A stretch of 55,148 bases of DNA from a virus (taxonomy: Duplodnaviria; Caudoviricetes), in the IMG/VR virus record IMGVR_UViG_3300032257_000016, positions 1 to 55,148 of that record. One strand, 5' to 3'. This document shows, piece by piece, positions 1,015 to 52,550 of the stretch. How positions within the stretch are numbered: the first letter of the stretch is position 1; the number at the start of each line of letters is the position of its first letter. The notes under the pieces are model-generated. The model was not told the DNA's origin, did not search any database, and saw nothing but the letters and a program-made list of their open reading frames with translations. The position numbers and the translations under genes were made by a program.

Positions 1015-1026
1015 GCACTCATGCGC
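1015..1026 (-). promoter_or_regulatory. Leader RNA hairpin copy 1, GCGCAUGAGUGC
   Basis: Exact 12-mer also at 48087 and 52539; 32 nt upstream of ATG982. Confidence 0.8.
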
Positions 1027-1047
1027 TGATTAAAAATGAATTAAGCT

Positions 1048-1398
1048 TTATCGTGTAACTTCTTTACTCAAGGTGACTTCACCCTGAAGGATTCTTGTTG
1101 CCTCGCCTGATGAAACGATCTCAATATCATAGAAACCGGACGAGAATGTAAATAACGCGGTAACGGCAGTTGGAATAACTAGCGTTATTTGGCCGTTTAC
1201 AGCATCTGTAATCGTAATGTCATTACCGGTTGCGCTGTCATATTCAGGAGTTGCAGAAGTAATTTTCTTCCTGATCTGCATTCTTGCAGTAAACCCAGTC
1301 AGATTTTTTGCCGCACCTACTGAATCCACATACGAGAACACATGAAGATAAACAGATCCCTGCTGAATGATTAAGTCTTCTTCTTGTACCTCAGACAC
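1048..1398 (-). CDS. Ig-like beta-sandwich virion protein (BppU-N/LtfC-like adaptor)
   Basis: I.QG...NLTG.TARMQIR...G.I.L......T......YDIE......RIL.G.V pattern. Confidence 0.65.
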   Translation of the reverse strand: MSEVQEEDLIIQQGSVYLHVFSYVDSVGAAKNLTGFTARMQIRKKITSATPEYDSATGNDITITDAVNGQITLVIPTAVTALFTFSSGFYDIEIVSSGEATRILQGEVTLSKEVTR

Positions 1399-3565
1399 TG
1401 ACTGGCTCCTCTTCGCTTACAGGCACATAGCCTATGTCTTTAAGAACTTCATCAGCGGCCTCTGCTATCTCAGGATTTGACGCAGCCAGGTCGCCTGCTT
1501 CCATTGCGGCCTTGAGTGCTGAAACCTTCCTGCTAAGTGCTGATGCCTTCTTATCTTCAGTCGAAGCTTCACGCTCTTCAATGACCGATTGTTTATCACG
1601 CTGATCCAGTTCCTTCTCAGCCCTCATTTCTTCTTCACGAGACTCACGCTCCGCCTTCTCTTCTGGCGTTTCACGTTCATCAGGTGCGCTCATGCCGTTA
1701 ATCTTGCGAATCCTTGATACCATCTCGTCTTTTCCGGGGAAGTCCGTCAGTTCAAAGACCATATCAAGCAACTGCAGGCCAACATCACCTGGCATCTTGC
1801 CGATCATGTCCATCATCTGCTCAAACATGGCAACACGAATTGACTCACGGAAATCTTGCGAATCAACAACAAAATCAGCTTTTGTTGCTGTTATATCGTT
1901 AATGTATGACACCTCACCTGTGACCGGATCAATCTCAGGCTCATTCATGGCGAGGAAGTTCATGTTCCCACGTTCACCGACAATGCGAATTTCTTTGCGA
2001 TCGACGATAAACTGCTCGGCCAATGACAATGTAATCTCACCCTGCAGCTGCACTGCGTAACGCAGGTTGTCAAATAACTCAGCTGTAACAACGCTACCTT
2101 CATTTTGCTTGGCAAGAATGGCTTTACCGCTCGCTGCATTTGTTTCAGAGCCAAGATTTTCACCAGTAACACCGGCACCGCTCATTACATAATCGTCATC
2201 ACGCTGCATGAGCATAATATGCTCTTCTGCTAACTGGCGATCTGTATTCATTTCAAACTTAACAAGACTATTGGCCAGCTTTATAACGCCATCGGGTCTA
2301 CTCGCCTCGTCAATAGCTTCATCCCAGTCCTCAACAGCGTTCTTGTCGGCGATAATTTGATTGGTTGATAGGATAAACAGCGCCTTACTGGCTCGTTTAT
2401 TCATGTCTTCCTGGGGATCTCGTGCATTACGAACAGCGCCATAAGGTGCATTATCACGCGAGCGGCGATAACCCCAGACTGGCGTAAACGGGAATCTATT
2501 ATGTTTATATGGTGAACGAATGTTTTGCAGTAAGTGGGTTCCTGCAAAAATAGCGCACCACATGCGCTGAACAAGAGAGTCATGCAGGCTGACAATTTCC
2601 TCAGTCGCCGCTTTATTCATTGTTTCGTCGTTTTCGTCGTAGATATTGCCGTCAAACTGCATGTCTCCGCGCATAATCTTCACGGATTCAGGCTTACGGT
2701 ACCAGCATTCGACAAGTCGTACACGCTCACGCCGGTTATCAGCATTGAACGCATCATCAAAATAGGATCTTCGGCCAACAACACGGCCTTGGTCGTCGGT
2801 TTGCTGATAAATCATAGAGTAATAAAACTCTTCGTCTTCATCAGTACCATAAAGATTATGGCTTACTGCGCTTTCCTCAAGTTCTTCCTTGCGGTCAGGG
2901 AATGAAGCAACAGCATAATCAAGATCAGTCCATTTACTGCGGAATAAGTAACGTGAATCAGACAGATCGCGCTCAACGCCGAGGCTGTCATACCACATAT
3001 TTCTCCAGCTCTCACAGCGAGAAAAGATTAATTCATCCGTTTCATCGTTATGAATTCCATCTTCAAGCCAGCCAACACCGACTTTCACGGAATCTGCAAA
3101 CGCAAGTGACCGATGGAATACCGTCTTATTAACGTCTGAAAGGTATTTAAGCAGCTTTGTCTTGCGACTAGCCGTTTCAACGTCACTTTCTTTTCGTGGA
3201 AATGCGTTAAAATCCACCTTTGTTCTTTTTTCGGTACCAATAATCCAGTCAACAGTCTGCTTGATCTTGTTGAACACCAGAGGTGCCTGGCCACGATCTC
3301 TTAATTCTTGTATATCCTCTTCTGACCACTGAAGACCATCATAAAAATCAGCGTCAGTCGCCATTTGTATTCTATTTTCAGCTTGCACCTGCCTTTCACG
3401 GTTCCACCAGTCCTGCAGCCGCGCCAATAACGCTTTGTTCTCCTCACTATCAAGCGCATGATCCTGGGTCGGTTCAGAAGGATCAGTGGACTCATCAATC
3501 ATCATGTACCGAGAGTCAGGGTCATGATAACCCTTGGTTTTGACGTTTTCGATACTACCCGGCAT
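1391..3565 (-). CDS. Portal protein (P22-like)
   Basis: 724 aa; D.DFYDG.QW, RGQAPLVFN, ASGKAILAKQ.EG motifs; lies downstream of terL. Confidence 0.93.
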   Translation of the reverse strand: MPGSIENVKTKGYHDPDSRYMMIDESTDPSEPTQDHALDSEENKALLARLQDWWNRERQVQAENRIQMATDADFYDGLQWSEEDIQELRDRGQAPLVFNKIKQTVDWIIGTEKRTKVDFNAFPRKESDVETASRKTKLLKYLSDVNKTVFHRSLAFADSVKVGVGWLEDGIHNDETDELIFSRCESWRNMWYDSLGVERDLSDSRYLFRSKWTDLDYAVASFPDRKEELEESAVSHNLYGTDEDEEFYYSMIYQQTDDQGRVVGRRSYFDDAFNADNRRERVRLVECWYRKPESVKIMRGDMQFDGNIYDENDETMNKAATEEIVSLHDSLVQRMWCAIFAGTHLLQNIRSPYKHNRFPFTPVWGYRRSRDNAPYGAVRNARDPQEDMNKRASKALFILSTNQIIADKNAVEDWDEAIDEASRPDGVIKLANSLVKFEMNTDRQLAEEHIMLMQRDDDYVMSGAGVTGENLGSETNAASGKAILAKQNEGSVVTAELFDNLRYAVQLQGEITLSLAEQFIVDRKEIRIVGERGNMNFLAMNEPEIDPVTGEVSYINDITATKADFVVDSQDFRESIRVAMFEQMMDMIGKMPGDVGLQLLDMVFELTDFPGKDEMVSRIRKINGMSAPDERETPEEKAERESREEEMRAEKELDQRDKQSVIEEREASTEDKKASALSRKVSALKAAMEAGDLAASNPEIAEAADEVLKDIGYVPVSEEEPVSV

Positions 3566-3794
3566 GACTGTCTGCCTCAGTTACCCACGCAACAACCAAT
3601 TCTTCGTCTTTATTGAGATAATCAACGTGAGTATATTTAATCTCAACGTGCGGCTCTTCAGCGTCCGGATAATATTGAATGGAATTCAGCTTAGATCCTT
3701 CAGGTATGCCATTCTCAACAAAGGTGGCAGGCAGGTTCCTATTCTGGGTGAATATTTTTTCGAATATTTCAGGCATTAAACGTACAGTAATCAT
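3555..3794 (-). CDS. Hypothetical protein
   Basis: 79-aa ORF coupled to both neighbours. Confidence 0.55.
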   Translation of the reverse strand: MITVRLMPEIFEKIFTQNRNLPATFVENGIPEGSKLNSIQYYPDAEEPHVEIKYTHVDYLNKDEELVVAWVTEADSHAG

Positions 3795-4174
3795 CAGTGA
3801 ACCACCTTTTGACCGCCAATAGAGATCTCAAGACCGTGATTCTCAACAGCCTCTTCAATAAGGTCTTGTGTGCTCTGTTCTTCTTCAGGAACCATCTTGA
3901 TTAGCTCGGGAAGGTAGTTCAGGATAGCGTCAGCGATCTTATAAGCCGCAACCCTTGTGTTTCCAAGGCCAAGAACGTCAGCGGCCTTATACGACTTCAT
4001 GACCAGCGTTTCGCTATCTGCATACTGCCATGCGGAAGACAGGCAAATAACATACGCTCGCTTACGGTTCATGTGACGAGATCCAATGCACATTGCAGGT
4101 TCACCGGATACATGCTGGAAGAATATTCTTAAATCATGCGTCTCGTAAACTGTATTTGGTTTAGTGCCGGACAT
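3794..4174 (-). CDS. Conserved hypothetical protein between terL and portal
   Basis: 126 aa, GAGGG RBS, preceded by a leader-hairpin copy. Confidence 0.7.
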   Translation of the reverse strand: MSGTKPNTVYETHDLRIFFQHVSGEPAMCIGSRHMNRKRAYVICLSSAWQYADSETLVMKSYKAADVLGLGNTRVAAYKIADAILNYLPELIKMVPEEEQSTQDLIEEAVENHGLEISIGGQKVVH

Positions 4175-4200
4175 AATAACCCTCTCGGTTCATCATCCAA

Positions 4201-4212
4201 GCACTCTTGCGC
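4201..4212 (-). promoter_or_regulatory. Leader RNA hairpin copy 2 (variant GCGCAAGAGUGC)
   Basis: 11/12 match to the other three copies; intergenic, 26 nt upstream of ATG4174. Confidence 0.75.
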
Positions 4213-4261
4213 AGCGGAATCGATTGTTTGTTTGAATTGGTGTGAATCAACTAATTATTTT

Positions 4262-4510
4262 TTATGGCTCAATATCAAGATCCGGCCTCAAGCAGATAAG
4301 GTGCTCTTCTGCACACATAAGTTCGTCGTCTGCATCTGCCAGTAGCCCTGCATCGCCATGAAGTCCCGCGTACAGATCTATCGTAGATCTCGCTTCCTGA
4401 ACGTAGTGAATGGCGCACTTAACAGAATAAAAGCCCTTTGTAGCCATGTAGTAACGTGCTTTAAGTTCGAGCCATTTATCATGCAGCCTATATTTTATGC
4501 TGTTCTCCAA
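4262..4510 (-). CDS. Hypothetical protein
   Basis: 82-aa ORF overlapping the end of terL. Confidence 0.5.
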   Translation of the reverse strand: MENSIKYRLHDKWLELKARYYMATKGFYSVKCAIHYVQEARSTIDLYAGLHGDAGLLADADDELMCAEEHLICLRPDLDIEP

Positions 4511-6015
4511 TTTTTCGCCCTCCGCCTGGTTTTACTGGCGCGTTCTGGTGTGAATCCTCGTGCAAATTGCTCAAAGCCGTCATTGCCATGGCTTGCATCA
4601 TTATGTAATGGCGTTTCTTGGAACGCCCCTATCTTGTCATTCCATTGCCGCCTGTAGTGATCCAGGTGCTTAATTCCTAATGCGCATCCCCGTTCATCAA
4701 AATAACACTGAGGAAGTGCGTCACGAACAGCCTGATGCGCTTCGCGCTTGTCTGGAACTCGCGGAACACATACAACCTTGAATCCGAACCCCTCCATGAT
4801 TTCCTTTCGGCTCTTATTGTCCTCCCTTGTCAACTCAACAACTTCACCGTCATGCGGGAAATAAACTGTACCGTAAACATAATCAAGCTGAAGCATGTAT
4901 TTTGCGTAGAACTGGATCGACTCACCGCAGTTTTCATAGTAATGAATGAATCGATACTCCATACCTACGTGCTGCATGAACCAAATCACGTTGAAATCAT
5001 TGCGTCCAAGGTCGAAAAAGGTGTAAACCTTCAGTCTTGGGTCAAATGGTATGTTCAATATGTGATTATTCTTGCGTATCCATGCCATTTGACGGCTGTA
5101 ATACGCGCCAACAATACTCTGCTCGAATGCTTCATCAGGTGTTGACGGATATTCACGCTTCATATCCTCACCCTGCCCCTCAAGCTTCTTCACGTACCAC
5201 GCCTTTTGCTCTGCATCGACCGTAATTCCACTCTTACTTTCTAATTCGTCGAAATACTTTTCATCTTCATCAGTAATAATGATGTTGTCTGGGTCTGTTC
5301 GGTATGATGGGTGTTTCCACCAGGGGAAGAAAAAGAACTTAAAATCAAGTTTCGATAGCTTCTTACCCATCTTGAGTAAGTTCCTGGCTATCTCTGTCAT
5401 GTCAAAGAACTTGCCTTCACGTCCCTCAGCGGTAGACTCAATGAAAATGAAGTGACCTTCATGCACCGCATTAAATGCGCCAGTTACAATCTCACGCGCC
5501 TTTTCCGGGTATTTAGCGCAGATCTTGCCGAATTCACTAACATGCAGGTACTGTAACGTGCCTGAGCGTAGGCTAGTTCCTACCCTGACGCTCGAATTAT
5601 TTGAAAGAAGCAACTCTCCTGCATCATTTTTAACCGCTTTGGGGATTAAATCTCGATATTTATCAGGAATATTATCGTAAGCAAACTTGATTTTATCCCG
5701 GAAAAACACCTGCGCATCATCTTTATTGTGCGCAATAACACCCGCTCGAATATTGTTGTTCCAGATTACCCGATCAAGAATGAATATCTGTATAAACGTA
5801 GTAAAACCAAGCTGGCGAGCTTTAAGTATTGTCGACAGGTACCACATTGTCCGATAAAAGGACTTTTGCGCCCAGTTCATCTTAAACAGAACCTTCTTGC
5901 CCTTCTCATTCGTAATGTAATACAAATGACTGAGCCGCCACTTCTCGTTGCCAATCGTCTTCTTCAGCTCCGCAAGTTCTTTCGGCGTTAGCTCTCTTTC
6001 CTTTTTAGTCGCCAC
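4495..6015 (-). CDS. terL: Terminase large subunit
   Basis: LKARQLGFTT Walker A, LHVSE Walker B, ESTAEG coupling motif, FDLG...SHGND nuclease; GTG6015 is the likely start. Confidence 0.95.
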   Translation of the reverse strand: MATKKERELTPKELAELKKTIGNEKWRLSHLYYITNEKGKKVLFKMNWAQKSFYRTMWYLSTILKARQLGFTTFIQIFILDRVIWNNNIRAGVIAHNKDDAQVFFRDKIKFAYDNIPDKYRDLIPKAVKNDAGELLLSNNSSVRVGTSLRSGTLQYLHVSEFGKICAKYPEKAREIVTGAFNAVHEGHFIFIESTAEGREGKFFDMTEIARNLLKMGKKLSKLDFKFFFFPWWKHPSYRTDPDNIIITDEDEKYFDELESKSGITVDAEQKAWYVKKLEGQGEDMKREYPSTPDEAFEQSIVGAYYSRQMAWIRKNNHILNIPFDPRLKVYTFFDLGRNDFNVIWFMQHVGMEYRFIHYYENCGESIQFYAKYMLQLDYVYGTVYFPHDGEVVELTREDNKSRKEIMEGFGFKVVCVPRVPDKREAHQAVRDALPQCYFDERGCALGIKHLDHYRRQWNDKIGAFQETPLHNDASHGNDGFEQFARGFTPERASKTRRRAKNWRTA

Positions 6016-6589
6016 TCGGAAGACCAAGATTCTTATCAGATATGGCTTCGTACAGATCAAGTAATGTAGTACCAGCTTCGTGCTGCACCTTGTCTGTCAG
6101 TATCTTGAGATACCTGCCTAGTAATTCCTGGGATCTGTTCGCGCCTGACGCATCAAACTTCTTAGTCATCGCCTGAATGGCTTTCCCGTCAATAGTGATC
6201 TGCTCAGGATATTCAACATCGCCGAGGCACCTGGCCAATATCTTCAGCTGATCTTTTAGCCATTGAGTCTGGTCATATTGAATGTCTTCAATGATCTCAG
6301 CCAGTCGCACGTCGATATACGCGCAAATTTCAGGCTTCTTTAGTAGATTACAGCCACCTACTCGCGCCGCATTGTCTGTTTTGCACGTTTTAAACGTCTT
6401 TCGGTATGCCTCACTCGCGTCGCGCTTGGGATCTGCAAGGTATAAGTCAGCAAACATTTGGTAATTGTCAGTAAGTCCATGCTCATTTACTGACTGCCGA
6501 CCTCGGGTTTTTGCTGTTTTCGTCTTCGAGGACGCTCTTTTCTTAGCCGGGGCTTTCTTCTTGGCCGATACTTTCTTCTTTGTGGTCAT
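6005..6589 (-). CDS. terS: Terminase small subunit with Lys/Ala-rich N-terminal tail
   Basis: LT....FADLYL.....A.EAY...A....LLK.PEI..YI HTH and FDASGANRSQELLGRYL; directly upstream of terL. Confidence 0.88.
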   Translation of the reverse strand: MTTKKKVSAKKKAPAKKRASSKTKTAKTRGRQSVNEHGLTDNYQMFADLYLADPKRDASEAYRKTFKTCKTDNAARVGGCNLLKKPEICAYIDVRLAEIIEDIQYDQTQWLKDQLKILARCLGDVEYPEQITIDGKAIQAMTKKFDASGANRSQELLGRYLKILTDKVQHEAGTTLLDLYEAISDKNLGLPSGD

Positions 6590-6785
6590 ACTCTGTTACC
6601 CATAACTGCTGTCCTGCCTTAGCATCCTCCAGTTCCTGAGTATGTCGTGGACAGGCATCTTGTAGTGTGAATCTGCAACCTCCACCGCAATAACAAACAG
6701 TAGACCGCACCCATCGAGCGTTTTCACGCACAGGAATACACTCAAATATATCTACATCGGAGTCATCAATCATTATTTCACGCAT
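6543..6785 (-). CDS. Hypothetical Cys-rich protein
   Basis: 80-aa ORF with no clear RBS; start abuts a terminator U-tract. Confidence 0.35.
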   Translation of the reverse strand: MREIMIDDSDVDIFECIPVRENARWVRSTVCYCGGGCRFTLQDACPRHTQELEDAKAGQQLWVTEYDHKEESIGQEESPG

Positions 6786-6809
6786 AAAAAAACCAGCGGC
6801 TAGGCTGGT
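6786..6809 (-). terminator. Intrinsic terminator ahead of the packaging genes (tR'-like)
   Basis: ACCAGC-ctagcc-GCTGGT followed by a T tract on the minus strand; TATAAT about 35 nt upstream (6841-6846). Confidence 0.7.
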
Positions 6810-6858
6810 GTTTATAACTTGGCGGATACAGGACGGTATTATTATATTTTTTGCAAAT

Positions 6859-6892
6859 AAAATGCCCTGAACTTTGTTGTTGAGGGCATTTT
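6859..6892. terminator. Probable bidirectional terminator closing the 6949-8206 cassette
   Basis: AAAATGCCCT-N14-AGGGCATTTT perfect inverted repeat. Confidence 0.65.
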
Positions 6893-6948
6893 TAGATCTT
6901 GATAATAATTAGTATGAATTAGGGCGCCCAATTTATCAAGTGCTTAGC

Positions 6949-7122
6949 TTACTTTTTTTCTCTGGCCTTTTTTTCTCTGGCCTTTTTCTTCTTCGCCGCA
7001 TAATCCTTTATGGACTCACGGTCTTCATCATAAGACCAGACCCATAGCTTACGCAGCCCCTTGTCCCTTTGCCGGGCTTCAAACTCTGAAACCCGGCGAT
7101 TTACTGTATTGTCTTTTGCCAC
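6949..7122 (-). CDS. Small basic putative DNA-binding regulator (ribbon-helix-helix/DUF3018-like), 57 aa
   Basis: My translation: MAKDNTVNRRVSEFEARQRDKGLRKLWVWSYDEDRESIKDYAAKKKKAREKKAREKK; GAGG RBS; RV..F..R.R..GL....VW pattern. Confidence 0.6.
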   Translation of the reverse strand: MAKDNTVNRRVSEFEARQRDKGLRKLWVWSYDEDRESIKDYAAKKKKAREKKAREKK

Positions 7123-7135
7123 TTTCTCGCCTCAC

Positions 7136-7603
7136 TTACATGTAAACTACATGCGCATGCCCGTCTTCAAAGGCCTCCGCAGCGTAATCCCGATGAAACG
7201 ACTCAAATTCAGCCGCTTCCTCTGGTGTCAGTATGCTGATACTGGTTCGGCCTTCAGCATTCATGTGCACGCTATCACAAAAGCTGTCGAAATCAGCCCT
7301 ATTAGCATGCACCTGGGAAAGATCAGCACCTCGGCACATATCGCAGTCGGTTGAATCAACCATTACGCTTATGAACCCATTGACTGAGCATGCCTGTATT
7401 TGTGAATTCAATGCTAATGACCTCACCTCAGCCCGATCATAGCTCATTATCGCGTCGGCTACCTCAACAGTCTTATACCAATCCTCCAGCCCAATTCGGC
7501 TAATCTTTGCAATATGATGGTTTAATTCATCGTCACTCAGACCCTGAAGGCTGGCGTGGCTAATACTCATGGCATTGAATAATGATTTGCTTATGTGTCT
7601 CAT
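7136..7603 (-). CDS. Hypothetical acidic protein
   Basis: 155 aa, AGGAG RBS, ATGA coupling. Confidence 0.7.
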   Translation of the reverse strand: MRHISKSLFNAMSISHASLQGLSDDELNHHIAKISRIGLEDWYKTVEVADAIMSYDRAEVRSLALNSQIQACSVNGFISVMVDSTDCDMCRGADLSQVHANRADFDSFCDSVHMNAEGRTSISILTPEEAAEFESFHRDYAAEAFEDGHAHVVYM

Positions 7604-7818
7604 TGTACAGCTCCTTCTCTCTTGCTGGTAACGAAATAGTCATAGTTATACACCTCAACCTTAAACGATCTGTCTGGCTGCTTTTCCCTGGATCGCAGTA
7701 ATGTGCATTCGCCAAACCAAAGGTCAGACCCGCAATCAAGTCTATCCTGGAACTTAATTGCATGATCTTTACTTGAAAACGACTTCTCTTTGCCTGAATA
7801 ATTTACTGTGAAGCTCAT
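7600..7818 (-). CDS. Hypothetical protein
   Basis: 72 aa, GGGGTG RBS. Confidence 0.65.
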   Translation of the reverse strand: MSFTVNYSGKEKSFSSKDHAIKFQDRLDCGSDLWFGECTLLRSREKQPDRSFKVEVYNYDYFVTSKREGAVQ

Positions 7819-7828
7819 ATATCACCCC

Positions 7829-8206
7829 CTACCCGTAAACCATTTCGCCAAAAAGGCAAAGCTGCAAGAAAGCATCACTCGTATCGGCATCCCAGTTCTC
7901 GCCCACTAAATCATTATAACAATCGGCGTCTTCTTCAATCAGCTTTTTGCCTAGTTCTACCGCATCCCGGTCAAGTCTCCAGACCTCACGGCCTTCATCG
8001 TCGCACTCGTCTGCATCGCAAATAAGAACCGCCCCGCCATTAAAAGGAAGAAGCCCGTATGGGTGAATATTCTTGGAATACTCGAAACTCACTGCCAATG
8101 GCTGCTCTGGCTTTTCGATACCCTCAATCATGTACCAATAATTTGAACCGCCCTCGAATGCGGTTATGAGTAGTTCACTTGCTAATTTATCTGAAATATT
8201 GCTCAT
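7829..8206 (-). CDS. Strongly acidic conserved phage protein
   Basis: 125 aa; A.EGG.NYW and DAD..D...Q..LFGE..YG motifs; GGAG RBS. Confidence 0.75.
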   Translation of the reverse strand: MSNISDKLASELLITAFEGGSNYWYMIEGIEKPEQPLAVSFEYSKNIHPYGLLPFNGGAVLICDADECDDEGREVWRLDRDAVELGKKLIEEDADCYNDLVGENWDADTSDAFLQLCLFGEMVYG

Positions 8207-8226
8207 TGTATTATCTCCGTTAGTTG

Positions 8227-8266
8227 CTTACACCTTAATAATAGGCGTAAGTTGCTAACGTGTCAA
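8227..8266 (-). promoter_or_regulatory. Near-consensus sigma70 promoter with an inverted repeat over the -10 box
   Basis: TTGACA-17 nt-TATTAT (8266-8261, 8243-8238); CTTACACCT-N7-AGGCGTAAG at 8227-8251. Confidence 0.85.
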
Positions 8267-8282
8267 GGAGTCTTTTTATATA

Positions 8283-8585
8283 TCAAACTAACGTGCACTC
8301 AATCATTGTATTAAGGCCGGACAATCGAAGAGTGTCACCATTTGACAGGATTTCTTTTCCTATCCTTGCTAACGCAAGCTCGCCCCCTTTCTCATATAAG
8401 TTTATTTCAAGTTCTATGCTAGGGAAGCCAAGGAGTCCCTTACTTACGCTTAAAACCTTAATTTCAATCTCTCCGTTTACCTCAAAATGAAACCCATTAT
8501 TATTGCGTACATTAGCAATAGTGCCATCTTTAAACCCAGCGGATAGCATAGACTCTAATGCGTCATCTGTTATTGTCGCTCTCAT
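8283..8585 (-). CDS. Hypothetical protein
   Basis: 100 aa, GGGGA RBS. Confidence 0.6.
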   Translation of the reverse strand: MRATITDDALESMLSAGFKDGTIANVRNNNGFHFEVNGEIEIKVLSVSKGLLGFPSIELEINLYEKGGELALARIGKEILSNGDTLRLSGLNTMIECTLV

Positions 8586-8680
8586 GTAATATTCCCCAAT
8601 GAATTAATACCCGTTACTTAACCGTTAAGCACCCGGAGAAAACAGGTTCCCGGCCTCAGTTTGAGTTCACGCATACCCGT

Positions 8681-8709
8681 TTGCATTGCAGTTGCATTGC
8701 AGTTGCATT
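8681..8709. repeat. 11-bp tandem repeat (TTGCATTGCAG)x2.6
   Basis: Read directly; intergenic, downstream of the Q-like gene. Confidence 0.85.
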
Positions 8710-8743
8710 CCGATTCTTTCCCTGACAATAGTATTGCAATCAC

Positions 8744-9160
8744 TCATATCGAATACCCAAACTTCCCAGCCAGGTGAGATACGGCGATTGCGCATTTTCT
8801 CTTAAAAGTAGTTTCAGTCATGCCGCAATAATCAACGGCCAGTTGACTTGTCCACTTCCCTGCAACATGAGGGCTATGCGGTAGAGCAAACTTTGCAAAG
8901 ATTACTTTTCGATAATCCTCGCTCAGATCCTTAATTGCAGCATCCGTATTGCTATTGAACTTATCGCGCCAATAAATCGGAACAAAGGCCACTCCCTTTC
9001 CTCCACCAGATCCGCCCTCAAATGCCCTGCGCTCAGCAGACATGCTCGGATAACCAAGACCAATGACATTCTTGTATATGTAGGCTCCCCACATATCAAG
9101 CCGCTGTATAATCCCCTGCAGCTCTGCGTCTGGATTATGTCTGTATCTTGGCTTATCCAT
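8744..9160 (-). CDS. Q-like late antiterminator/activator
   Basis: RL..WG...GLGYPSMS N-terminus and a C-terminal sigma-region-4-like HTH; last gene of the nin-like region. Confidence 0.7.
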   Translation of the reverse strand: MDKPRYRHNPDAELQGIIQRLDMWGAYIYKNVIGLGYPSMSAERRAFEGGSGGGKGVAFVPIYWRDKFNSNTDAAIKDLSEDYRKVIFAKFALPHSPHVAGKWTSQLAVDYCGMTETTFKRKCAIAVSHLAGKFGYSI

Positions 9161-16119: not shown

Positions 16120-16154
16120 GTGGTCGTGTATTTAATTTAAGCAGGAGCTTAATC

Positions 16155-45314: not shown

Positions 45315-47474
45315 TTAACCAATCAGTAAGACTGGGTAAAATCGCGGATTATTACCATATACGGCAGTAAAAAGAACCGGGTCATCATTCGACATTTCAG
45401 AAAAATAACCGGGAGTATAATTCACATTATCGTAAGCATTAAGCATTGTTGGGTATTTGCCATATTGCCAAGATGACAAGTAATCGCCTGCAGGGCTTAT
45501 CGGCATGTGACCGTTTTTAGTGCTTCCATCAAAACCAATATATCGAGATAAATTTTCTTGTGTTTGTGATAGAAACACTGGGTTAGTAACGCCAATCCTT
45601 ATGCCAGCATACCCACTAGCGGAGGATGACCACTCCTGAACGCGTTGAACAGCCACTGTAGTATCAGTTATGGTCGAAGCCAGATCCCCAAGATTAATAA
45701 TTATTCTATGAGCAAGGCCGCTGAAAATTGGCGATCCCGTCGTGTCAGTTAACATATTCGCGGTAACAGCAAGTGACCCCGGTGCCTTATGAATAAAATC
45801 CGATACCATTGTGTCGCTATCAGATACAGACTGATATGATTGGAATGATTGACCATTATTAGTGAAACTAGATCCCTGAAGGAACCGTCCATTACTGACA
45901 ACATTATGCCTGCCTATCACATACGCATTATTTCTTGCGTCTGCATAATTAATTGAAAGAACATTATCAGTGATAGTCGAGTTGCTTGTAAGATTTGAGG
46001 TTATTGCTCCAGGTATTCCTGCTGATTCAGAAAGCATTCTTGAGACTGTCGTTGGCAGTGCGCCAGTAACAGTTAAATCTGTGCGAATTACCTCGTTGCG
46101 ACTAGCTGCAGCAGAATATGACATAAGCACCCGCTCTGTTCCAACATACAATTCAATAGTTGCACTTTCGGTGTAATCTACGTTGTATTGATTCTCAAAA
46201 TAGCCAGATCCAGAGCAAATATTAGGCACATAGATATTACCGCTATCATAAGCAGTCCATGCGCCATAAGTTGTAGCAGCTGCCGTTCTTGTTACTGTGC
46301 CGGATTTAGTAAGAATCGCGTAAACGTAAACTGGCAGCATGTCCTTGAAGTCGGCGGCTATTACGGTTTCCGTTCTTGATGAAAAGTTAAGCGTCTGATT
46401 TGATGAATCAGATTCATCGTAGTTCCAGTTCGCGGTTACGCTACATGCTGGGAACGTATAGGCAGGAAGGCCAGTTGCAATAGGACTTGGTGCCGACACT
46501 GAAGGATATGCGTCTTTAGTCTCTGTATATGAATGACTTCGATGAACATCAACGCCAGCCTTTGTTAGATATTCAGTTATTGGATTAAATGTTATTTTAA
46601 TAACCGTTTCAGAATTAATGCCACTAGCAGCCTCACCAGGAAGTGAAAAGTTCCTGACGGTTACTGCTTCTGTTCCGTCACCATTAAAAAACCAGCCAAG
46701 CTGAACGGCTTGCTCATAATTTGCGGCATCATACGGATATTCAATCAATATCTTCCAGCCATCAGGTGCTGTCATAGCATCATAATAACTGGGATCTTTT
46801 GATTTATTATACGGCTTCCATATAACCGTATCCTTCTCTGCTCCGAATGCACTTACAATCGCAATAATATAAACAACCGTAACGTCATTTTCTATGCGCT
46901 TTGTTAGCGCGGCTCCGCGAACAGGGAGAGGCGATATTTCAGAAATACTTCCGTGCTCATAAATATTTACATCAAACAACCCTTCATCATTTACTGTGTC
47001 GGACGTTATTCTGGATGGCGACCCATGATAACTAATAACCTTTGTTGCCTTCCCTTTTGAATAGAATCCCTGCCAGTCAACCTCTCCGGCCTCTGGATTA
47101 GACCTTCTTTTTATTGACCAGACATTGTTTTTTGCTTTTAACACTGCTTCCGCAGGAGTGCCGCCAACAGTTCCCAATGGAGGATTAATGTCAATTCCAA
47201 ACGAGTCTGTTATAGGCGCACCCCATCCGGCAGGAGCAGAGTCAGAAGCAGGTAAACACCTAAACGACCATGGAATAATGCCGCCAGCCTCAATATAGAT
47301 AGTATCTATACCTGAATACGACGACATTCTTATGAGAACATTAGGCTGAATGTTTAATGTCTTGTTAACCCCATTCAGAAACCGCTTTAATGTCGCAAGC
47401 TTGTTTTTTGCGAAGCTGATCCACTTTGCAGCTTCTGTTTTGTCTCCTTTGAGGATTATTTTTGGTGGAACCAT
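45315..47474 (-). CDS. Tail/receptor-binding structural protein
   Basis: 719 aa, S/T-rich beta composition, in the tail module. Confidence 0.55.
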   Translation of the reverse strand: MVPPKIILKGDKTEAAKWISFAKNKLATLKRFLNGVNKTLNIQPNVLIRMSSYSGIDTIYIEAGGIIPWSFRCLPASDSAPAGWGAPITDSFGIDINPPLGTVGGTPAEAVLKAKNNVWSIKRRSNPEAGEVDWQGFYSKGKATKVISYHGSPSRITSDTVNDEGLFDVNIYEHGSISEISPLPVRGAALTKRIENDVTVVYIIAIVSAFGAEKDTVIWKPYNKSKDPSYYDAMTAPDGWKILIEYPYDAANYEQAVQLGWFFNGDGTEAVTVRNFSLPGEAASGINSETVIKITFNPITEYLTKAGVDVHRSHSYTETKDAYPSVSAPSPIATGLPAYTFPACSVTANWNYDESDSSNQTLNFSSRTETVIAADFKDMLPVYVYAILTKSGTVTRTAAATTYGAWTAYDSGNIYVPNICSGSGYFENQYNVDYTESATIELYVGTERVLMSYSAAASRNEVIRTDLTVTGALPTTVSRMLSESAGIPGAITSNLTSNSTITDNVLSINYADARNNAYVIGRHNVVSNGRFLQGSSFTNNGQSFQSYQSVSDSDTMVSDFIHKAPGSLAVTANMLTDTTGSPIFSGLAHRIIINLGDLASTITDTTVAVQRVQEWSSSASGYAGIRIGVTNPVFLSQTQENLSRYIGFDGSTKNGHMPISPAGDYLSSWQYGKYPTMLNAYDNVNYTPGYFSEMSNDDPVLFTAVYGNNPRFYPVLLIG

Positions 47475-47477
47475 TTA

Positions 47478-48062
47478 TTATGCGCTTGCAATGTTAATCG
47501 AATAGCCGACAAGGAATACATCGCCTGACTTTAATATCCTTGCTGCTGGGAAATTACTTACAGACATAAGCAAACCTGCCGCGCCACCTTTCTGCGAACT
47601 TGATATTAAAAACGCGCCAAGAACAGTTTGATCGGCGCTCATTGTGTAGATAGATCGGCTTGCAGTATTGGTAATTGACTGACCAGAAGGAGCCGCTTCG
47701 TTCCATACTGGGCGAGTGGTTTCAGTATAACTTGAGGTTTCTACTGCATTTGCGGCAATATTTGCAGCAACTTCACCAGCGATCGGCGTATAAGTCCCTG
47801 TGTAAATACCGATATACCATGCAGGAATCTTGGTACCATCATTAAATCCAACGCTCAGCAGATGATCCAGACCCTCATTAACAACTTTGTTATGTGATTG
47901 ACCTGACGAGATTAATTGGCCGCCTCGGTAATGCTCATAATCAAAAACGCCACCAATAGTAATATTCTGCTCTGGTATCAGTATTTCGCCACCAGGCATT
48001 TTCTCATATCGATTGTTTACAAGAGATCGTTTAATTCCTGAAGTAATTTCAGACGCAGACAT
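47478..48062 (-). CDS. Virion structural beta-rich subunit
   Basis: HN.VVNEGLDHLL, WYIGI..G, ITN.AS...Y......TV.GAFL; GGAGG RBS. Confidence 0.7.
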   Translation of the reverse strand: MSASEITSGIKRSLVNNRYEKMPGGEILIPEQNITIGGVFDYEHYRGGQLISSGQSHNKVVNEGLDHLLSVGFNDGTKIPAWYIGIYTGTYTPIAGEVAANIAANAVETSSYTETTRPVWNEAAPSGQSITNTASRSIYTMSADQTVLGAFLISSSQKGGAAGLLMSVSNFPAARILKSGDVFLVGYSINIASA

Positions 48063-48086
48063 TTAGCACCTCCAGCGGTGATTAAT

Positions 48087-48098
48087 GCACTCATGCGC
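48087..48098 (-). promoter_or_regulatory. Leader RNA hairpin copy 3, GCGCAUGAGUGC
   Basis: Exact 12-mer, 24 nt upstream of ATG48062. Confidence 0.8.
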
Positions 48099-48122
48099 AT
48101 GAAAATAATTGTGATTGTAAAA

Positions 48123-49391
48123 TTAAGTGATTAATACGCCATTGCGTATGATCGCCGATGTAACTGTGTCTCCAATAGCTATATTTCCCTGCTGTCCACC
48201 GTCTTTTAAAAGGCCAATATATTGATTTATTCCATTTTCATTCTTAATAACGCCAGCCCCTGAGTCAGCATTTTGATTAACATAGCGATCATCATTTATT
48301 ATAGAAAAGTACCCACTATTTCCAGCAAGGCAAAGACCGAGATCACTTAACCAGAAATATACGTCGCCAACGATTCCCTCTCCAACATAAGAGCCGTTAG
48401 CCCTTGCTTCGGTACCAAAGATGCCTTTTGCATTTGATTTAACGACAAGAGACGGCTGAGCAGGGTTAGTGCCTGGCATCCAATAGGTTTTATCAGCTGA
48501 AATGTGTATGCCATCGTCAACAGGAACGGCAATGGTAATATTTTTGGGAAACCGAAGGTAATTTTTTGATAATATGAACCAGTCAAGCGCGTATGGCTCA
48601 GAGTAATAAAGCGTATCACCAGAAACAACATACATTCGACCTTTGAAATAAAATACGATCTCACCAGCAGGAGGCGGGGATACGAACTGGCTGCGTAATG
48701 GCGAAGAATAGACGGGGGTTGTAATTTGGCGGCTTGTTGTGCCATTTGCCACAGTATCGACAAGGTAAAGCATGTCTCCATTATGGCTAGAAAGATAAAT
48801 GTTCACGTATGCGACACGACTATCAGAACTAACGGGTATTCCTGTTAGTTGAATTCCATTGTTATCTGCAAGATCAATACTGATTGCAATATCTGCCCCT
48901 GACTCAAGGCCATCAGAGGAAACGTAAGTAGTTGTCACCTGATAGTTACCAGCTGGCATGGCTCCAGCTATAGAGGATAAAATAGGCTGAGTCATTGGAA
49001 CAGAAATGCCCCATGGATAATTAACGCCACCCTTTAATACTCCGGTCTTCTGAGAGTCTGAGTAATATATGTCGCCATCAACAGATTCATAGGTCATTTT
49101 TTTGCCGAGAGACAAATCAGACCTAAGTGATGTTGCTGTATTGTCGTCATTGAGAACTTTCAGGCTATTGCCTTCTACGAATAGCTTGGTTAATTCATCA
49201 GAGTAAAGGCTATGTATCCCAGACCCTGAATAGACCTTTGAATATCCCGATCTTCGACTTACGCCATGATTATCATCAATATCTATATTTAGCCCAGCTC
49301 GAAGCTCGTCGGCACCAAGGCTATCTTCCGAATTAATATTATTAATTCCCCTGAACTGGGATAGGTTCACTGTGTTTTCATTTACTGGCAT
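48123..49391 (-). CDS. Tail nozzle/stabilisation protein (beta-propeller-like)
   Basis: F.GINN...LR...NIDID....V.RR.G; follows the adaptor gene. Confidence 0.7.
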   Translation of the reverse strand: MPVNENTVNLSQFRGINNINSEDSLGADELRAGLNIDIDDNHGVSRRSGYSKVYSGSGIHSLYSDELTKLFVEGNSLKVLNDDNTATSLRSDLSLGKKMTYESVDGDIYYSDSQKTGVLKGGVNYPWGISVPMTQPILSSIAGAMPAGNYQVTTTYVSSDGLESGADIAISIDLADNNGIQLTGIPVSSDSRVAYVNIYLSSHNGDMLYLVDTVANGTTSRQITTPVYSSPLRSQFVSPPPAGEIVFYFKGRMYVVSGDTLYYSEPYALDWFILSKNYLRFPKNITIAVPVDDGIHISADKTYWMPGTNPAQPSLVVKSNAKGIFGTEARANGSYVGEGIVGDVYFWLSDLGLCLAGNSGYFSIINDDRYVNQNADSGAGVIKNENGINQYIGLLKDGGQQGNIAIGDTVTSAIIRNGVLIT

Positions 49392-50092
49392 TACATAAAT
49401 CTCGCAGGAACTCTTTGTTTTGAATGGACTCGGCCTGACTCAAGATCTCTTGCTGTCGGCCTCTCTCCAAACTCTTGTGTAAACATTTCAGCATAATCCA
49501 GTGACTTACGCGGATCATACGTTTCAGAATCTGTTTTCTGGTATGCAATGCTTCTCGCCCAATTAAGCAGGCCAAAATGATGAACTGGCGCTATTTCTGG
49601 CGATTTTGTATTTGCTGCCCAGGTTAATGGCTTTAATTGAGTGCGCCATACGGTCAATTTCAGCAGCCCTGCTATTTTTGGCGCTGGTACCAGTCTTATC
49701 TGGTGACTTTCAAGATCAGTTATGAATGTATCAGGTTCATCAATGCTTGGCAGACCCTCCCACATTGGGTATCTTCGATCTAGGTCGCGTGATGTTGACT
49801 GCTCCATGGAATACTTGGCGCTCTCGATCTTAGCTCTATATATATCAAGAACACGATTATCAATGTCATAAAATGCTTCGTCTGCAACAAGGTCAATTTC
49901 AACCAACGCAGGCGTAGAAGAATCCCTAATGAGACGCGCCCGTAGACACGCCTCATCAATAGCTTTGTTGATATACAACACAAGTTCATCATTTGACCAC
50001 AATGAATCACTGTCCGGCGTAGTCCCGGTACCAGGCTTTTCAGAATCATCTAAAAATATTCGCAGTTGCGCTACCAATTCACTAAGCTTCAC
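49391..50092 (-). CDS. Head-tail adaptor (P22 gp4-like)
   Basis: LWS.DEL..YIN.A..EAC.R, P.I...HH..L..W....AY.K.D.ET.D. Confidence 0.8.
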   Translation of the reverse strand: MKLSELVAQLRIFLDDSEKPGTGTTPDSDSLWSNDELVLYINKAIDEACLRARLIRDSSTPALVEIDLVADEAFYDIDNRVLDIYRAKIESAKYSMEQSTSRDLDRRYPMWEGLPSIDEPDTFITDLESHQIRLVPAPKIAGLLKLTVWRTQLKPLTWAANTKSPEIAPVHHFGLLNWARSIAYQKTDSETYDPRKSLDYAEMFTQEFGERPTARDLESGRVHSKQRVPARFM

Positions 50093-50104
50093 AGGATTAC
50101 CTCG

Positions 50105-50797
50105 TTACTTCGTTTTTTTAGCTGCCGCTTTTTTTTTCGCGGGTGCCTTTTTCTTTGCTGGCGCCTTTTTCTTCGGCTTTTTAGCTGCCCTTTCAAGAGA
50201 ATCAGCGTATTCATCCAGTTTCATCAGCACGGTGTCAACGAACATAGAGTCTTTTTGCTTATGCTCTTCTGTCAGTTCTTCATAAGGGATCATGCACGGA
50301 TGGGTTTTTGATTCTTCATTCTTGACAGCGCCATATATCCAGCCGTTAGCTTCTTTTTCAGCCATCCAGCTTTCATGTGACATTTCAGGTGACATATCAG
50401 GATTGTTAATTACTGCCTTAACACCATTAATTGCACTTTCTTTCTGCCAGTCGGGTGCTTCTTCCCAAGAAGATTGCGAGAAGTCGTCATTTGCTTCGCA
50501 ATAAGCGCGGTTGTTCTCGTGTGCTGCGATGGCAATATTCTCAACAACATCATTTGGAACTGTGTCGAAAACAACCGGTTCAGCTTCTTTTTCAATCTTA
50601 ATCGCTTTTTTATCAGCAGATTCAGATTCATCGTATAATTCATAGGCCTCGGTGACAGACAATAAAGTACCCATGTGTTTTTTATTTTCAACATCACAGA
50701 CATGGTGGCCTTTATTGTTCGGTTTAAAATGGTACTCAGTATCATCGAGATCTACACGCGTACCGCCTTGGCGGATAAGCTTGCAGCGTAGCATCAT
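50105..50797 (-). CDS. Head-module protein containing an RyR domain and a Lys/Ala-rich tail
   Basis: AHE.NRAYC...W.EAP.WQ.ESA..GV...SHESW...K...GW.YG.VK....KTHPC..PY.EL....K.KD. Confidence 0.85.
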   Translation of the reverse strand: MMLRCKLIRQGGTRVDLDDTEYHFKPNNKGHHVCDVENKKHMGTLLSVTEAYELYDESESADKKAIKIEKEAEPVVFDTVPNDVVENIAIAAHENNRAYCEANDDFSQSSWEEAPDWQKESAINGVKAVINNPDMSPEMSHESWMAEKEANGWIYGAVKNEESKTHPCMIPYEELTEEHKQKDSMFVDTVLMKLDEYADSLERAAKKPKKKAPAKKKAPAKKKAAAKKTK

Positions 50798-50826
50798 AAT
50801 ATTAATCCTCCATTGGATTAGTTAAG

Positions 50827-50857
50827 AAAAACGGGGAGCGGCAAGATTACCGCTCCC
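50827..50857 (-). terminator. Intrinsic terminator after the decoration gene
   Basis: GGGAGCGG-taatcttg-CCGCTCCC-CGTTTTT. Confidence 0.8.
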
Positions 50858-50878
50858 AAAGTCCACACCAAGGACGAA

Positions 50879-51334
50879 TTAAGCCCCGTATCGTGATGAA
50901 CGGTAGTACAGTGTCAAACCAATTTTTCCTGTAGTTGCCCCGGTAGCAGGAGCAGTGCCGACCTTTACGCCATATACCGTTTCACCGGCAGCAGGAGCAA
51001 TGCGAACACCACCAGCCTGATCCATTCGAGCAACACCACCAGCCTGACCCACAGTTGAATTGTCAATCAACTCATTTGCTGCGCCACCTGCACTGACAAC
51101 GCCAGCATCAAGCACGAGCGCGGGAGAGCCGCCTGTATCCAGGTCGTCTGAATCCAAGATGCAGTCAACAGGAACATGATCGCCCGGAAGTTTTACCAGT
51201 TCGATAATGTCATTTACCACCAACGCGGCAGCAAGATCATATTCGCCCCGAACTGCTTTAACTTCACCCGCTTCTGCAGCATCAACCGCAGGACGGGAAC
51301 CCTTTACATTTACACTCTGAAAAGTAGTAGCCAT
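50879..51334 (-). CDS. Capsid decoration/cement protein
   Basis: 151 aa directly after the MCP; DIIEL..LP....VD..L.SDDLD. Confidence 0.75.
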   Translation of the reverse strand: MATTFQSVNVKGSRPAVDAAEAGEVKAVRGEYDLAAALVVNDIIELVKLPGDHVPVDCILDSDDLDTGGSPALVLDAGVVSAGGAANELIDNSTVGQAGGVARMDQAGGVRIAPAAGETVYGVKVGTAPATGATTGKIGLTLYYRSSRYGA

Positions 51335-51361
51335 TTTGTTTTTACCTCAAATTAAATAATT

Positions 51362-51390
51362 AAAACGAAGGGGTGCATAAAACACCCCTT
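51362..51390 (-). terminator. Hairpin/terminator after the major capsid gene
   Basis: AAGGGGTG-ttttatg-CACCCCTT-CGTTTT. Confidence 0.7.
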
Positions 51391-51406
51391 TATTTTTTAG
51401 CTATGA

Positions 51407-52510
51407 TTAGCCAGGATCTTTCGCTGCAGTTTCTGCGGCAATAACACCGAAGTCCTTGCCGTTGTAAGTAGTCTTCTTCACACCGACGATAGAAGAAGTC
51501 GTAATTACAGCCTGATTGCCGTTATCACGAGTTTCTTCATGCCAGTCGTAACGAAGATTGGTACCAGGAGAGCCAAACGCACAAACACCGGCCTGAGCAC
51601 CAAGGAACAGAGCGCGAGACGCTTCAACATTTGAGCCAGCGCCATAGTCATTGAAGCGCACAATACCCTTGTGAGAATGCAGTACAACATTGTTGTACAT
51701 ACCCAGAGCGCCACGGAAGATTGGATTCTTTCGTCCTTCGGCACCTGCAGCAGCTTTTTGAATATCAAGCCATTGACCAGCTGAAGTGTTTGTGCGCATG
51801 TCGAATTCCTGCCATGGATTCATAACCAGACAGTAATGCTCTTCACCATCGACCATCACAGGCTGGATCTGAGGAATTTCAGTAGTACCACCACCCATCA
51901 TAGTCGCACGAGCAACACAGCGATCGACAAGATTAACATCCATTTTGTCGGTTGCGGCAATCGAAGCTTTTGATGTAGCGGAGCCAGCATACAAGATATG
52001 ATCTGTATCTGGAGCAGTCAGGCTATTATTTGCAAAACCTGAGTACGTTGTCGGGAAAATGTAATCCGTGTTGATTCCACGCGCACCAGACAGGTACATG
52101 AAGAACAACTCGTCAAATACACGCGCCCACCATTCAGACTGACGTTTTTTAGCAATCTTGCGCAGGTCATGAAGTGTACGCTTGCGAGTCATGCGACCGC
52201 CAGTATTAACACCACCACGCAGCTGATCGATATAAACACCGTCAGTGTAGAACTTCAGATCTTCCTCGTTTCCATCCAGAGTGTTATCACCCTCAACAGG
52301 CTGCATCTTGAGCTGAACAGACAGATCAAACGAAATGTATTCACCTGCATCATTCTCAAGATGGTTCAGCATCTGGATAGGTGTGCTTGCTTCTTCACCG
52401 TAGCCCATGAACTTCTTAGTGAAGTATGATTTACGGCCAACATCGACTGCCAGTGCGGCAGACCATTTATTTACTGCTTTTGCATCATTTAAACCTATAA
52501 TGGTCTTCAT
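51407..52510 (-). CDS. Major capsid protein (N4-gp56/DUF4043 family)
   Basis: L.GNEEDL.FY.D...IDQ.R, GG.M..KRT..DLR, NPIF.G.LG.Y..V, LGAQA, KDFGVI. Confidence 0.93.
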   Translation of the reverse strand: MKTIIGLNDAKAVNKWSAALAVDVGRKSYFTKKFMGYGEEASTPIQMLNHLENDAGEYISFDLSVQLKMQPVEGDNTLDGNEEDLKFYTDGVYIDQLRGGVNTGGRMTRKRTLHDLRKIAKKRQSEWWARVFDELFFMYLSGARGINTDYIFPTTYSGFANNSLTAPDTDHILYAGSATSKASIAATDKMDVNLVDRCVARATMMGGGTTEIPQIQPVMVDGEEHYCLVMNPWQEFDMRTNTSAGQWLDIQKAAAGAEGRKNPIFRGALGMYNNVVLHSHKGIVRFNDYGAGSNVEASRALFLGAQAGVCAFGSPGTNLRYDWHEETRDNGNQAVITTSSIVGVKKTTYNGKDFGVIAAETAAKDPG

Positions 52511-52538
52511 GTGTGCTTACCTCTATTTTCAAAGTAAG

Positions 52539-52550
52539 GCACTCATGCGC
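52539..52550 (-). promoter_or_regulatory. Leader RNA hairpin copy 4, GCGCAUGAGUGC
   Basis: Exact 12-mer, 28 nt upstream of the MCP ATG; preceded by a second hairpin GATATGC-gggt-GCATATC (52563-52580). Confidence 0.8.

Follow-up and report, generated by a model that had tools for sequence, protein, structure and literature searches.

A candidate CsrA-type translational switch in the late-gene leaders of a podophage-like virus

In Bacillus subtilis, CsrA controls the translation of flagellin via sites in the leader of its message, as part of the CsrA-FliW-flagellin partner switch. In phage Mu, the start site of mom is closed by RNA structure and opened by the small phage protein Com, and in the maturation-gene leader of MS2 a start site that is likewise closed by RNA structure is opened through delayed folding. 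CsrA can also be an activator: at E. coli ymdA the leader sequesters the ribosome-binding site, which opens upon CsrA binding, according to Renda et al. 2020 (PMC7492729). Homologues of CsrA, to which no function has been assigned, are found in 30 of the 2,517 phage genomes covered by a 2020 survey, which also describes conserved Arg44 of CsrA as the residue that reads the first G of GGA (PMC7366521). A csrA-type gene upstream of a capsid gene has been called a 'moron' in one study (PMC10269572), and the role of a capsid-adjacent csrA homologue is described as untested in another (PMC11879866). Here we describe a short RNA element that is repeated in the leaders of four late genes, one of them next to a gene for a 60-amino acid (aa) CsrA-like protein, in the virus record IMGVR_UViG_3300032257_000016 (Duplodnaviria; Caudoviricetes). 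The window, i.e., the whole stretch of DNA that was analysed, is the entire record of 55,148 bases, with a completeness rating of 77%. The reading that accounts best for the observations, and which we hold with moderate confidence, is a phage-owned CsrA-type translational switch for virion proteins. Phage csrA homologues and their location next to the capsid gene were known already; the cis-acting RNA element is undescribed in the literature that we found, and no description of any cis target for phage CsrA homologues was found there, the genome description of Bcep22 being outside the coverage.

Exact search of the whole window finds four copies of the motif GCGCAWGAGTGC, at 1015-1026, 4201-4212, 48087-48098 and 52539-52550, all on the minus strand; as the window covers the whole record, four is also the copy count for the record. 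By chance, 0.01 copies would be expected, and none of 100 shuffled sequences attained four, which bears out the estimate of the initial annotation that a 12-mer of this kind should occur well under once per 55 kb. The motif is a sharp family without a degenerate cloud, since at up to two mismatches there are 10 matches in the window where 7.7 are expected. The only two matches with a single mismatch (18477 and 52152) lie within open reading frames (ORFs). Every copy is intergenic and sits on the coding strand in front of a minus-strand late gene that has a Shine-Dalgarno sequence, and both this placement and the distances to the four start codons (Table 1) agree with the initial annotation. 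The product that it had called a 144-aa subunit is, by Pfam, a fibre protein of the GP4 gp80 type.

On the mRNA the 12-mer is predicted to form a small hairpin, in which a GCGC/GUGC stem with one G-U pair closes an A-N-G-A tetraloop (AUGA in three copies of the window and AAGA in one). The closing pairs are those that had been read from the window earlier, namely A-U, U-A plus A-U, and G-C, with U-U in the copy at 4201. These flanking pairs had been put forward as compensatory; they are present, but their covariation within the window is not significant (p ~0.15), because three paired flanks out of four would be seen in about 15% of cases by chance (hand calculation, 6/16 per pair). It is the relatives that carry the support for compensation.

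These relatives are 160 loci around homologous capsid genes, half of them the 80 top-ranking viral candidates out of at least 598, and half the 80 top-ranking genomic candidates out of 149. The string CANGAG occurs within 130 nucleotides (nt) of the capsid start in 100 of the 156 loci with usable upstream DNA, and clusters at ~30-50 nt and at ~60-70 nt. We collected the 123 CANGAG sites that are more than 20 nt away from the start, choosing them by sequence only and ignoring pairing, and aligned the 100 distinct ones with the four copies of the window (alignment A1, 104 rows). The eight-pair helix of this alignment is 73.0% paired, as compared to 62.2 ± 1.1% after shuffling, a level that none of 500 shuffles attains, and its covariation score of 0.333 exceeds both the shuffled value (0.168) and the values obtained with the 3' partners slid (0.079-0.146). 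Covariation in homologous leaders, which had been proposed as a check on the element, is thus seen above both kinds of control. Pair 1 is an invariant C-G, pair 2 is G-U in 76 rows and G-C in 17, pair 3 is C-G in 82, and pair 4 is G-C in 77. The outer pairs 5 and 6 are formed in 71 and 76 rows, respectively, and make use of GC, CG, AU, UA, GU and UG, mainly of the first three.

Since the conserved G-U cannot pair on the opposite strand, the hairpin acts on the sense strand. Across the 160 loci, we counted 143 hairpins with an ANGA loop and at least five pairs on the coding strand, as against 29 on the opposite one; a reversed-sequence control gives 53 and 30. With covariation, slide controls and strand bias all pointing the same way, the element has the character of a short hairpin on the mRNA strand, a trait that it shares with operators of the CsrA/Rsm type. 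A covariance model built from 69 hairpins (alignment A3) recovers the four copies in the window with 18.6-25.5 bits, the next match being at 12.2 bits (E 0.53), and even at E<=10 it lists neither of the two single-mismatch sites. Comparison of both strands of the whole window with Rfam gave no match at the gathering score.

The same evidence bears on a signal at the DNA level, be it a promoter (a late one, or a hairpin promoter as in phage N4) or the operator of a DNA-binding regulator. The fairly fixed spacing of 24-32 nt to late start codons and the AT-rich DNA upstream of three of the four copies would suit such a signal; the conserved G-U, the compensatory changes and the strand-biased matches would not, and sigma-70-like hexamers (-35 and -10 with 16-18 nt between them) are found at no copy. 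In the N4 system, a virion RNA polymerase uses a hairpin of the template strand, whereas the G-U (G-T) pair of our element forms on the coding strand only. The giant protein of the window, a polyvalent protein encoded by a single 4,906-aa ORF (26631-41351, minus strand), has LPD1, AAA_34/ResIII helicase and Helicase_C_4 domains and, according to a domain scan, no polymerase domain, and none of 20 proteins of the early and replication side that were scanned against PHROGs matched an RNA polymerase or a sigma factor. We thus consider a DNA-level signal very improbable and concur with the initial annotation, which had preferred an RNA element to a DNA operator or promoter. Because the stems covary beyond the length of a transcription bubble, we also set aside sigma-54, ECF-type and T7-type promoters and an RfaH ops-like element. 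The late stretches scanned (1-9000 and 47000-55148) contain one near-consensus sigma-70 site, at 8266-8238 on the minus strand (TTGACA, 17 nt, TATTAT; 11/12), upstream of a 125-aa gene at 7829-8206; it may be a start of late or lysis-side transcription.

The picture of a lone hairpin is incomplete, because the 12-mer is also an anti-strand to the ribosome-binding region and because a CsrA-like gene adjoins it. In the relatives, the capsid start region often reads GCACTC-ATG, which is the reverse complement of the motif loop and 3' arm. Among leaders that bear the hairpin, 19 of 83 have CACTC no farther than 12 nt from the capsid start, as opposed to one of 55 leaders that lack the hairpin. For 83 distinct capsid leaders, the duplex of the loop, 3' arm and flank with the last 13 nt and the start codon has a mean energy of -11.6 kcal/mol; with partners permuted among loci the mean is -9.05 ± 0.24 and the best value -9.84 kcal/mol, so that the complementarity is locus-specific. 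Some relatives have variant 3' arms matched by variant start regions, such as GUGAC/GUCAC and GGGCC/GGCCC. A closed fold, in which at least four bases of the loop and 3' arm pair with the start region, is the minimum free energy (MFE) structure in 64 of 80 leaders, the small hairpin being kept in eight; when start regions are swapped among the 80 leaders, the closed-fold count falls to 40.5 ± 3.5, with a maximum of 51. In all four leaders of the window the lowest-energy fold is likewise predicted to pair the motif with the start region (Table 1). A structure of the ymdA type, occluding the Shine-Dalgarno sequence or start codon, is therefore predicted in the window as well as in most relatives.

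The 3' arm is common to both folds, which makes the small hairpin and the closed fold mutually exclusive. Both appear to be selected, given that the closed fold does not impose the outer pairs of the hairpin, which covary. The Shine-Dalgarno sequence begins 13-19 nt after the motif, and includes GGA after copies 1 and 3 (GGAGG) and not after copies 2 and 4 (GAGAGGG and GAGGU).

The closed fold is predicted to be an imperfect duplex of 14-18 bp, and each copy separates cistrons in an array of late genes that share one strand, with terminator-like hairpins on both sides of the capsid gene. These features would be in keeping with a processing or stability element, in which the helix or the hairpin is cut by, or shields from, host RNase III or RNase E, and so sets the amounts of individual cistrons of a long late transcript. 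The observed complementarity, however, is not to just any partner but is aimed precisely at the Shine-Dalgarno and start region, and the link with the csrA-like gene, which is examined below, would be left unexplained; we regard this role as improbable.

The gene directly upstream of the capsid leader is, judging by sequence comparison, that of a diverged CsrA homologue. A profile of 64 homologues matches RsmE/CsrA structures in PDB, with 2jpp at E 2e-9, eleven chains of the CsrA/Rsm family at E<=1 and nine of them at E<=5e-4, and 41 of these 64 are themselves recognised by the Pfam CsrA model at E<=0.01 (best 1.4e-8). The AlphaFold2 (AF2) model of the 60-aa protein has a predicted local distance difference test (pLDDT) score of 88. 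Among the Foldseek matches listed for it, CsrA/RsmE chains occupy ranks 1-11, 13 and 15, and 5dmb, a structure of the CsrA-FliW type, is also present; at ranks 1-11 the template modelling (TM) scores are 0.62-0.71 and the root-mean-square deviations (rmsd) 0.8-1.8 Å, with E-values that are weak (0.07-0.2) for so short a chain. As a homodimer, the protein obtained a prediction score of 0.52, the best control scoring 0.00, with contacts that agree to at least 95% between runs and pLDDT of at least 72; among proteins of known structure, 20 of 30 solved as pairs attain this mark, as does one of 23 solved as single chains. In the predicted dimer, strand 1 of one subunit packs against residues 31-37 of its partner, as in an intertwined dimer, a likeness and not a proof, for CsrA dimers have already been solved and the prediction may draw upon memory of them.

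In 114 of the 160 loci the capsid gene is closely preceded, on the same strand, by a homologous small ORF, which in most cases ends 46-190 nt before the capsid start; for phages LASTA and GP4, RefSeq places a 'CsrA-like regulator' before the major head gene. The 148 loci with at least 700 nt of upstream DNA include 74 with both the gene and the hairpin, 33 with the gene only, one with the hairpin only and 40 with neither. A looser definition of the hairpin, with loops of 4-7 nt, was dropped, as it raised the background and not the count beside csrA-like genes: it is matched in 74 of 107 loci with the gene and in 9 of 41 without it, and on the opposite strand in 17 of 107 and 10 of 41.

The protein also varies together with the RNA. 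Arginine at the column equivalent to Arg44 is seen in 18 of 69 distinct homologues that are accompanied by a hairpin, and its frequency depends on the proximal loop: 12 of 27 with AGGA, the loop that contains GGA, 6 of 24 with AUGA, none of 17 with AAGA and none in the single case of ACGA (p 0.01). When the proteins are grouped at 50% identity into 37 clusters, the table becomes 7/6/2/22 (p 0.004). Relatives carry, in addition, a distal second ANGA hairpin in tandem with the first, at the place that another hairpin occupies in the capsid leader of the window (Table 1). The loop of these distal hairpins is that of the proximal ones, but a GAGUGC 3' arm, with its match to the start region, is absent from most of them, which argues for a factor that reads the loop. 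On account of the protein-RNA co-variation, the synteny and the distal hairpins, we propose the CsrA-like protein for this part; it is probably the reader of the hairpin loop.

Sequence support for two folds would also be expected of a self-contained RNA switch that works without a protein. The hairpin, being 5' of the closed fold, would form first on nascent RNA and leave the start site briefly open, after which refolding into the closed form, the predicted ground state in the window and in most relatives, would limit or time translation, in the manner of the MS2 maturation gene. Nothing in such a scheme accounts for the invariant A-N-G-A loop and the conserved G-U pair, for the distal hairpins that mostly have no GAGUGC arm, or for the association with the csrA-like gene and its Arg44-equivalent residue, and to us it seems unlikely, if less so than the processing element.

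Under a CsrA-type switch, the 12-mer would be the core of a cis-acting element in the 5' leaders of four late (virion) messages. We infer that these messages are read through from upstream, no promoter having been noted at the copies. The leaders would settle in the closed fold as their ground state, with the loop, 3' arm and 3' flank paired to the Shine-Dalgarno sequence and start codon, shutting the ribosome-binding site. A dimer of the CsrA-like protein would then bind the alternative A-N-G-A hairpin, hold its 3' arm off the start region and free the start site, so that translation of the capsid and of three other virion proteins would be switched on, as by CsrA at E. coli ymdA. Both the binding and the direction of control are what we infer, activation being the direction that we prefer; the dimer could also act in the opposite way, bridging the hairpin and the Shine-Dalgarno sequence downstream of it and blocking the ribosome.

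The resemblance to CsrA, RsmA and RsmE (as in RsmE-hcnA, 2jpp) extends to both partners. The protein is small and β-rich and is predicted to be a dimer of the same fold, and the presumed target is a short leader hairpin that lies close to the Shine-Dalgarno sequence and whose purine-rich loop is closed by C-G. Unlike in these systems, the gene is encoded by a phage, its presumed targets are the phage's own virion messages, proximal in cis, and no sponge RNA was seen. The predicted parallel with ymdA consists in a leader that sequesters the ribosome-binding site, a regulator site on the sequestering strand and binding that would open the site; the element described here, in contrast, precedes four genes and is conserved across a phage clade. 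As in B. subtilis, a CsrA-family protein is proposed to act on leader sites of a very abundant, self-assembling structural protein, no FliW-like antagonist was found, in scans that were not aimed at one, and any coupling of the switch to capsid assembly would be speculation. Phage Mu Com/mom and the MS2 leader differ in that the proteins are unrelated and each has a single target, in place of a repeated motif.

Phage lambda provides another short, conserved RNA hairpin whose loop is read by a small phage protein, as we propose here. Its boxB has a GNRA-like pentaloop, is accompanied by boxA and an N-type protein, and acts on transcription of early operons. A loading site of this kind, allowing read-through of intrinsic terminators within the virion block, might be of use here, as strong terminator-like hairpins stand in the same-strand late block (minus strand) at 51390-51368, right after the capsid gene, 53671-53651, 50857-50834 and 6809-6792, and as a terminator lies just upstream of the capsid-leader hairpins in some relatives (L009, L013 and L014). 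The loop of our element, however, has four bases in place of such a pentaloop, the hairpin is complementary to late-gene ribosome-binding sites, which points to translation, and no N-like or Q-like gene was found among 28 proteins scanned against Pfam, a scan that included no search aimed at boxA or an N-type protein. We give an antiterminator site hardly any credence. The terminator-like hairpins themselves imply either read-through or antitermination, or else dosage control of the capsid message. Judged by the GC-rich stem and following U tract of intrinsic terminators, the motif copies do not belong to this class: in a loose scan copy 4 alone passes (tail TTACTTTGAA), copies 1-3 being unlisted.

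A number of observations weigh against the CsrA-type switch. The protein scores 18.4 bits (E 2e-3) against Pfam CsrA (PF02599), for which the cut-off is 27 bits, and has Lys46 at the position of CsrA Arg44 and Glu at that of Arg7, so that RNA binding by it is not assured. The AUGA and AAGA tetraloops of the window lack the GGA that defines CsrA sites. The strict motif is missing from 33 of 107 leaders beside a csrA-like gene; many of these 33 keep the GCGC/GUGC scaffold with variant loops (ANGAC, AGUA, AGCA, AGAAG), and the named phages have variants too, GCGC-AAGAC-GUGC in the LASTA leader and ACGC-AGGA-GUGU, with a 4-bp stem, in that of GP4. All 23 loci at 30-42% capsid identity have neither the gene nor the hairpin, so the co-occurrence of the two is in part phylogeny; both it and the association of Arg with the loop are confounded by shared descent. 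The loci themselves are a sample, limited to the best matches of larger candidate sets. Of the four window leaders, only that of the capsid is individually unusual in its folding energy, the other three having z of -1.3 to -1.8 with about 10% of shuffles as good.

The copies in front of other genes are without comparative support. Relatives of the 144-aa gene have no hairpin in any of 80 cases, either by the model (default filters, E<=1) or by a pattern scan of 130 nt upstream, and for the 194-aa and 126-aa genes no relatives were confirmed. The copy number of the motif is lineage-specific: five near-complete relatives have one to four covariance-model matches each, and in related loci, within 6 kb on either side of the capsid gene, further hairpins stand ahead of the gene that follows the capsid gene, of a ~300-aa gene before csrA, and of several genes of 137-215 aa. 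Together with the absence of the hairpin from relatives of the fibre gene, this makes the three extra copies of the window look like recent recruitments of the same 12-mer.

A broader proposal, more tentative than the switch itself and one that may well prove wrong, is that csrA homologues of Bcep22/GP4/LASTA-like podophages are the trans-acting half of a phage-owned translational regulon, and not host-tampering 'morons'. The protein would flip a start-site-sequestering switch that precedes the capsid gene and further virion genes; its specificity would have drifted from GGA to NGA with the loss of Arg44, insulating it from the host Csr system, and the regulon would spread by copying of the 12-mer. 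If the CsrA reading is true, the virus would carry both halves of a Csr-type circuit, and would also be a source of compact protein-RNA switch parts with altered specificity. A conserved RNA target that adjoins the gene, before the most abundant virion protein, makes the function of phage csrA directly accessible to experiment.

Table 1. Motif copies, leaders, candidate reader and downstream genes in the window (energies in kcal/mol; bits and E from the covariance model unless a database is named)
Feature	Coordinates	Strand	Description
Copy 1	1014..1027	-	AGCGC-AUGA-GUGCU, 5 bp; 32 nt 5' of 144-aa gene start; 24.3 bits, E 2e-4
Copy 2	4201..4212	-	GCGC-AAGA-GUGC, 4 bp, U-U flank; 26 nt 5' of 126-aa gene start; 18.6 bits, E 8e-3
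Copy 3	48085..48100	-	AUGCGC-AUGA-GUGCAU, 6 bp; 24 nt 5' of 194-aa gene start; 22.2 bits, E 8e-4
Copy 4	52538..52551	-	GGCGC-AUGA-GUGCC, 5 bp including one G-U; major-capsid leader, 28 nt 5' of ATG; top match, 25.5 bits, E 1e-4
144-aa gene leader	968..1034	-	Motif predicted to pair with GGUACACCCAUGG, start codon included; MFE -19.3, z -1.83, 13/200 shuffles as good; hairpin-enforced -14.0
126-aa gene leader	4160..4220	-	3' arm predicted to pair with GGCACU, codons 3-4; MFE -17.0, z -1.38, 20/200 shuffles as good; hairpin-enforced -13.5
194-aa gene leader	48048..48106	-	Long-range fold predicted; MFE -16.6, z -1.33, 21/200 shuffles as good; hairpin-enforced -14.1
Capsid leader	52496..52558	-	Motif and 3' flank predicted to pair with Shine-Dalgarno-to-AUG; MFE -16.4, z -3.56, 2/200 shuffles as good; hairpin-enforced -11.8
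Distal second hairpin, capsid leader	52563..52580	-	GAUAUGC-GGGU-GCAUAUC, read from sequence
60-aa CsrA-like gene	52591..52773	-	Candidate hairpin reader; directly upstream of capsid leader
144-aa gp80-type fibre protein gene	548..982	-	Pfam PF23140 Gp80 (GP4 fibre I protein), E 3.7e-46; follows copy 1
126-aa gene	3794..4174	-	Between terminase large subunit and portal; weak phrog_10057 match; follows copy 2
194-aa late gene	47478..48062	-	Function unassigned; phrog_8123, no Pfam match; follows copy 3
Major capsid protein gene, 367 aa	51407..52510	-	phrog_334, E 8e-115; follows copy 4

PHROG and Pfam scans give the window a temperate-looking podophage layout, with an integrase, a repressor-like protein, RecE/RecT, SSB, a replication initiator and NinB on the early and replication side, and small and large terminase, portal, major capsid, adaptor and head closure genes for packaging and the head. 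By DNA comparison, the named phages closest to the window are Erwinia PEp14 and Pavtok, Klebsiella LASTA and SJM3, GP4-like phages of Ralstonia, and Pseudomonas Skulduggery. The position of the 126-aa gene matches that of LASTA gp23, and LASTA and GP4 have counterparts of the 4,906-aa gene whose annotation is DarB-like antirestriction. The virion block also encodes a 230-aa protein (50105-50797, minus strand) with an RyR (ryanodine-receptor repeat) domain (E 8e-13). Segment 47400-53700 of the window is contained in two DNA runs only, both from microbial-mat metagenomes and one of them perhaps the source, and no RNA run is listed for it.

Downstream of the integrase gene (22593-23759, plus strand), at a distance of 64 nt, there is a 25-base fragment resembling a tRNA 3' end (23823-23847, minus strand), with a T-arm, an acceptor stem and CCA; ARAGORN detected no whole tRNA in the window, and the fragment is probably the attachment-site core of a tRNA-integrating prophage. 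Within the replication-initiator gene (13744-14583), at 14159-14213, a 6-base unit that reads GGAAAA on the coding strand is repeated 9.2 times; it gives rise to a Gly-Lys repeat in the product, and the DNA repeats may be origin iterons. The RecT-like gene (start 16155) has its Shine-Dalgarno sequence enclosed by a perfect 6-bp palindrome, TTAAGC-AGGA-GCTTAA (16137-16152, plus strand), which has the canonical hairpin shape with GGA in the loop, belongs to an early gene, and may be of chance origin. Finally, tandem TTGCATTGCAG units (2.6 copies, 100% match) are found at 8681-8709, in the 158-nt intergenic region upstream of the gene at 8283-8585.

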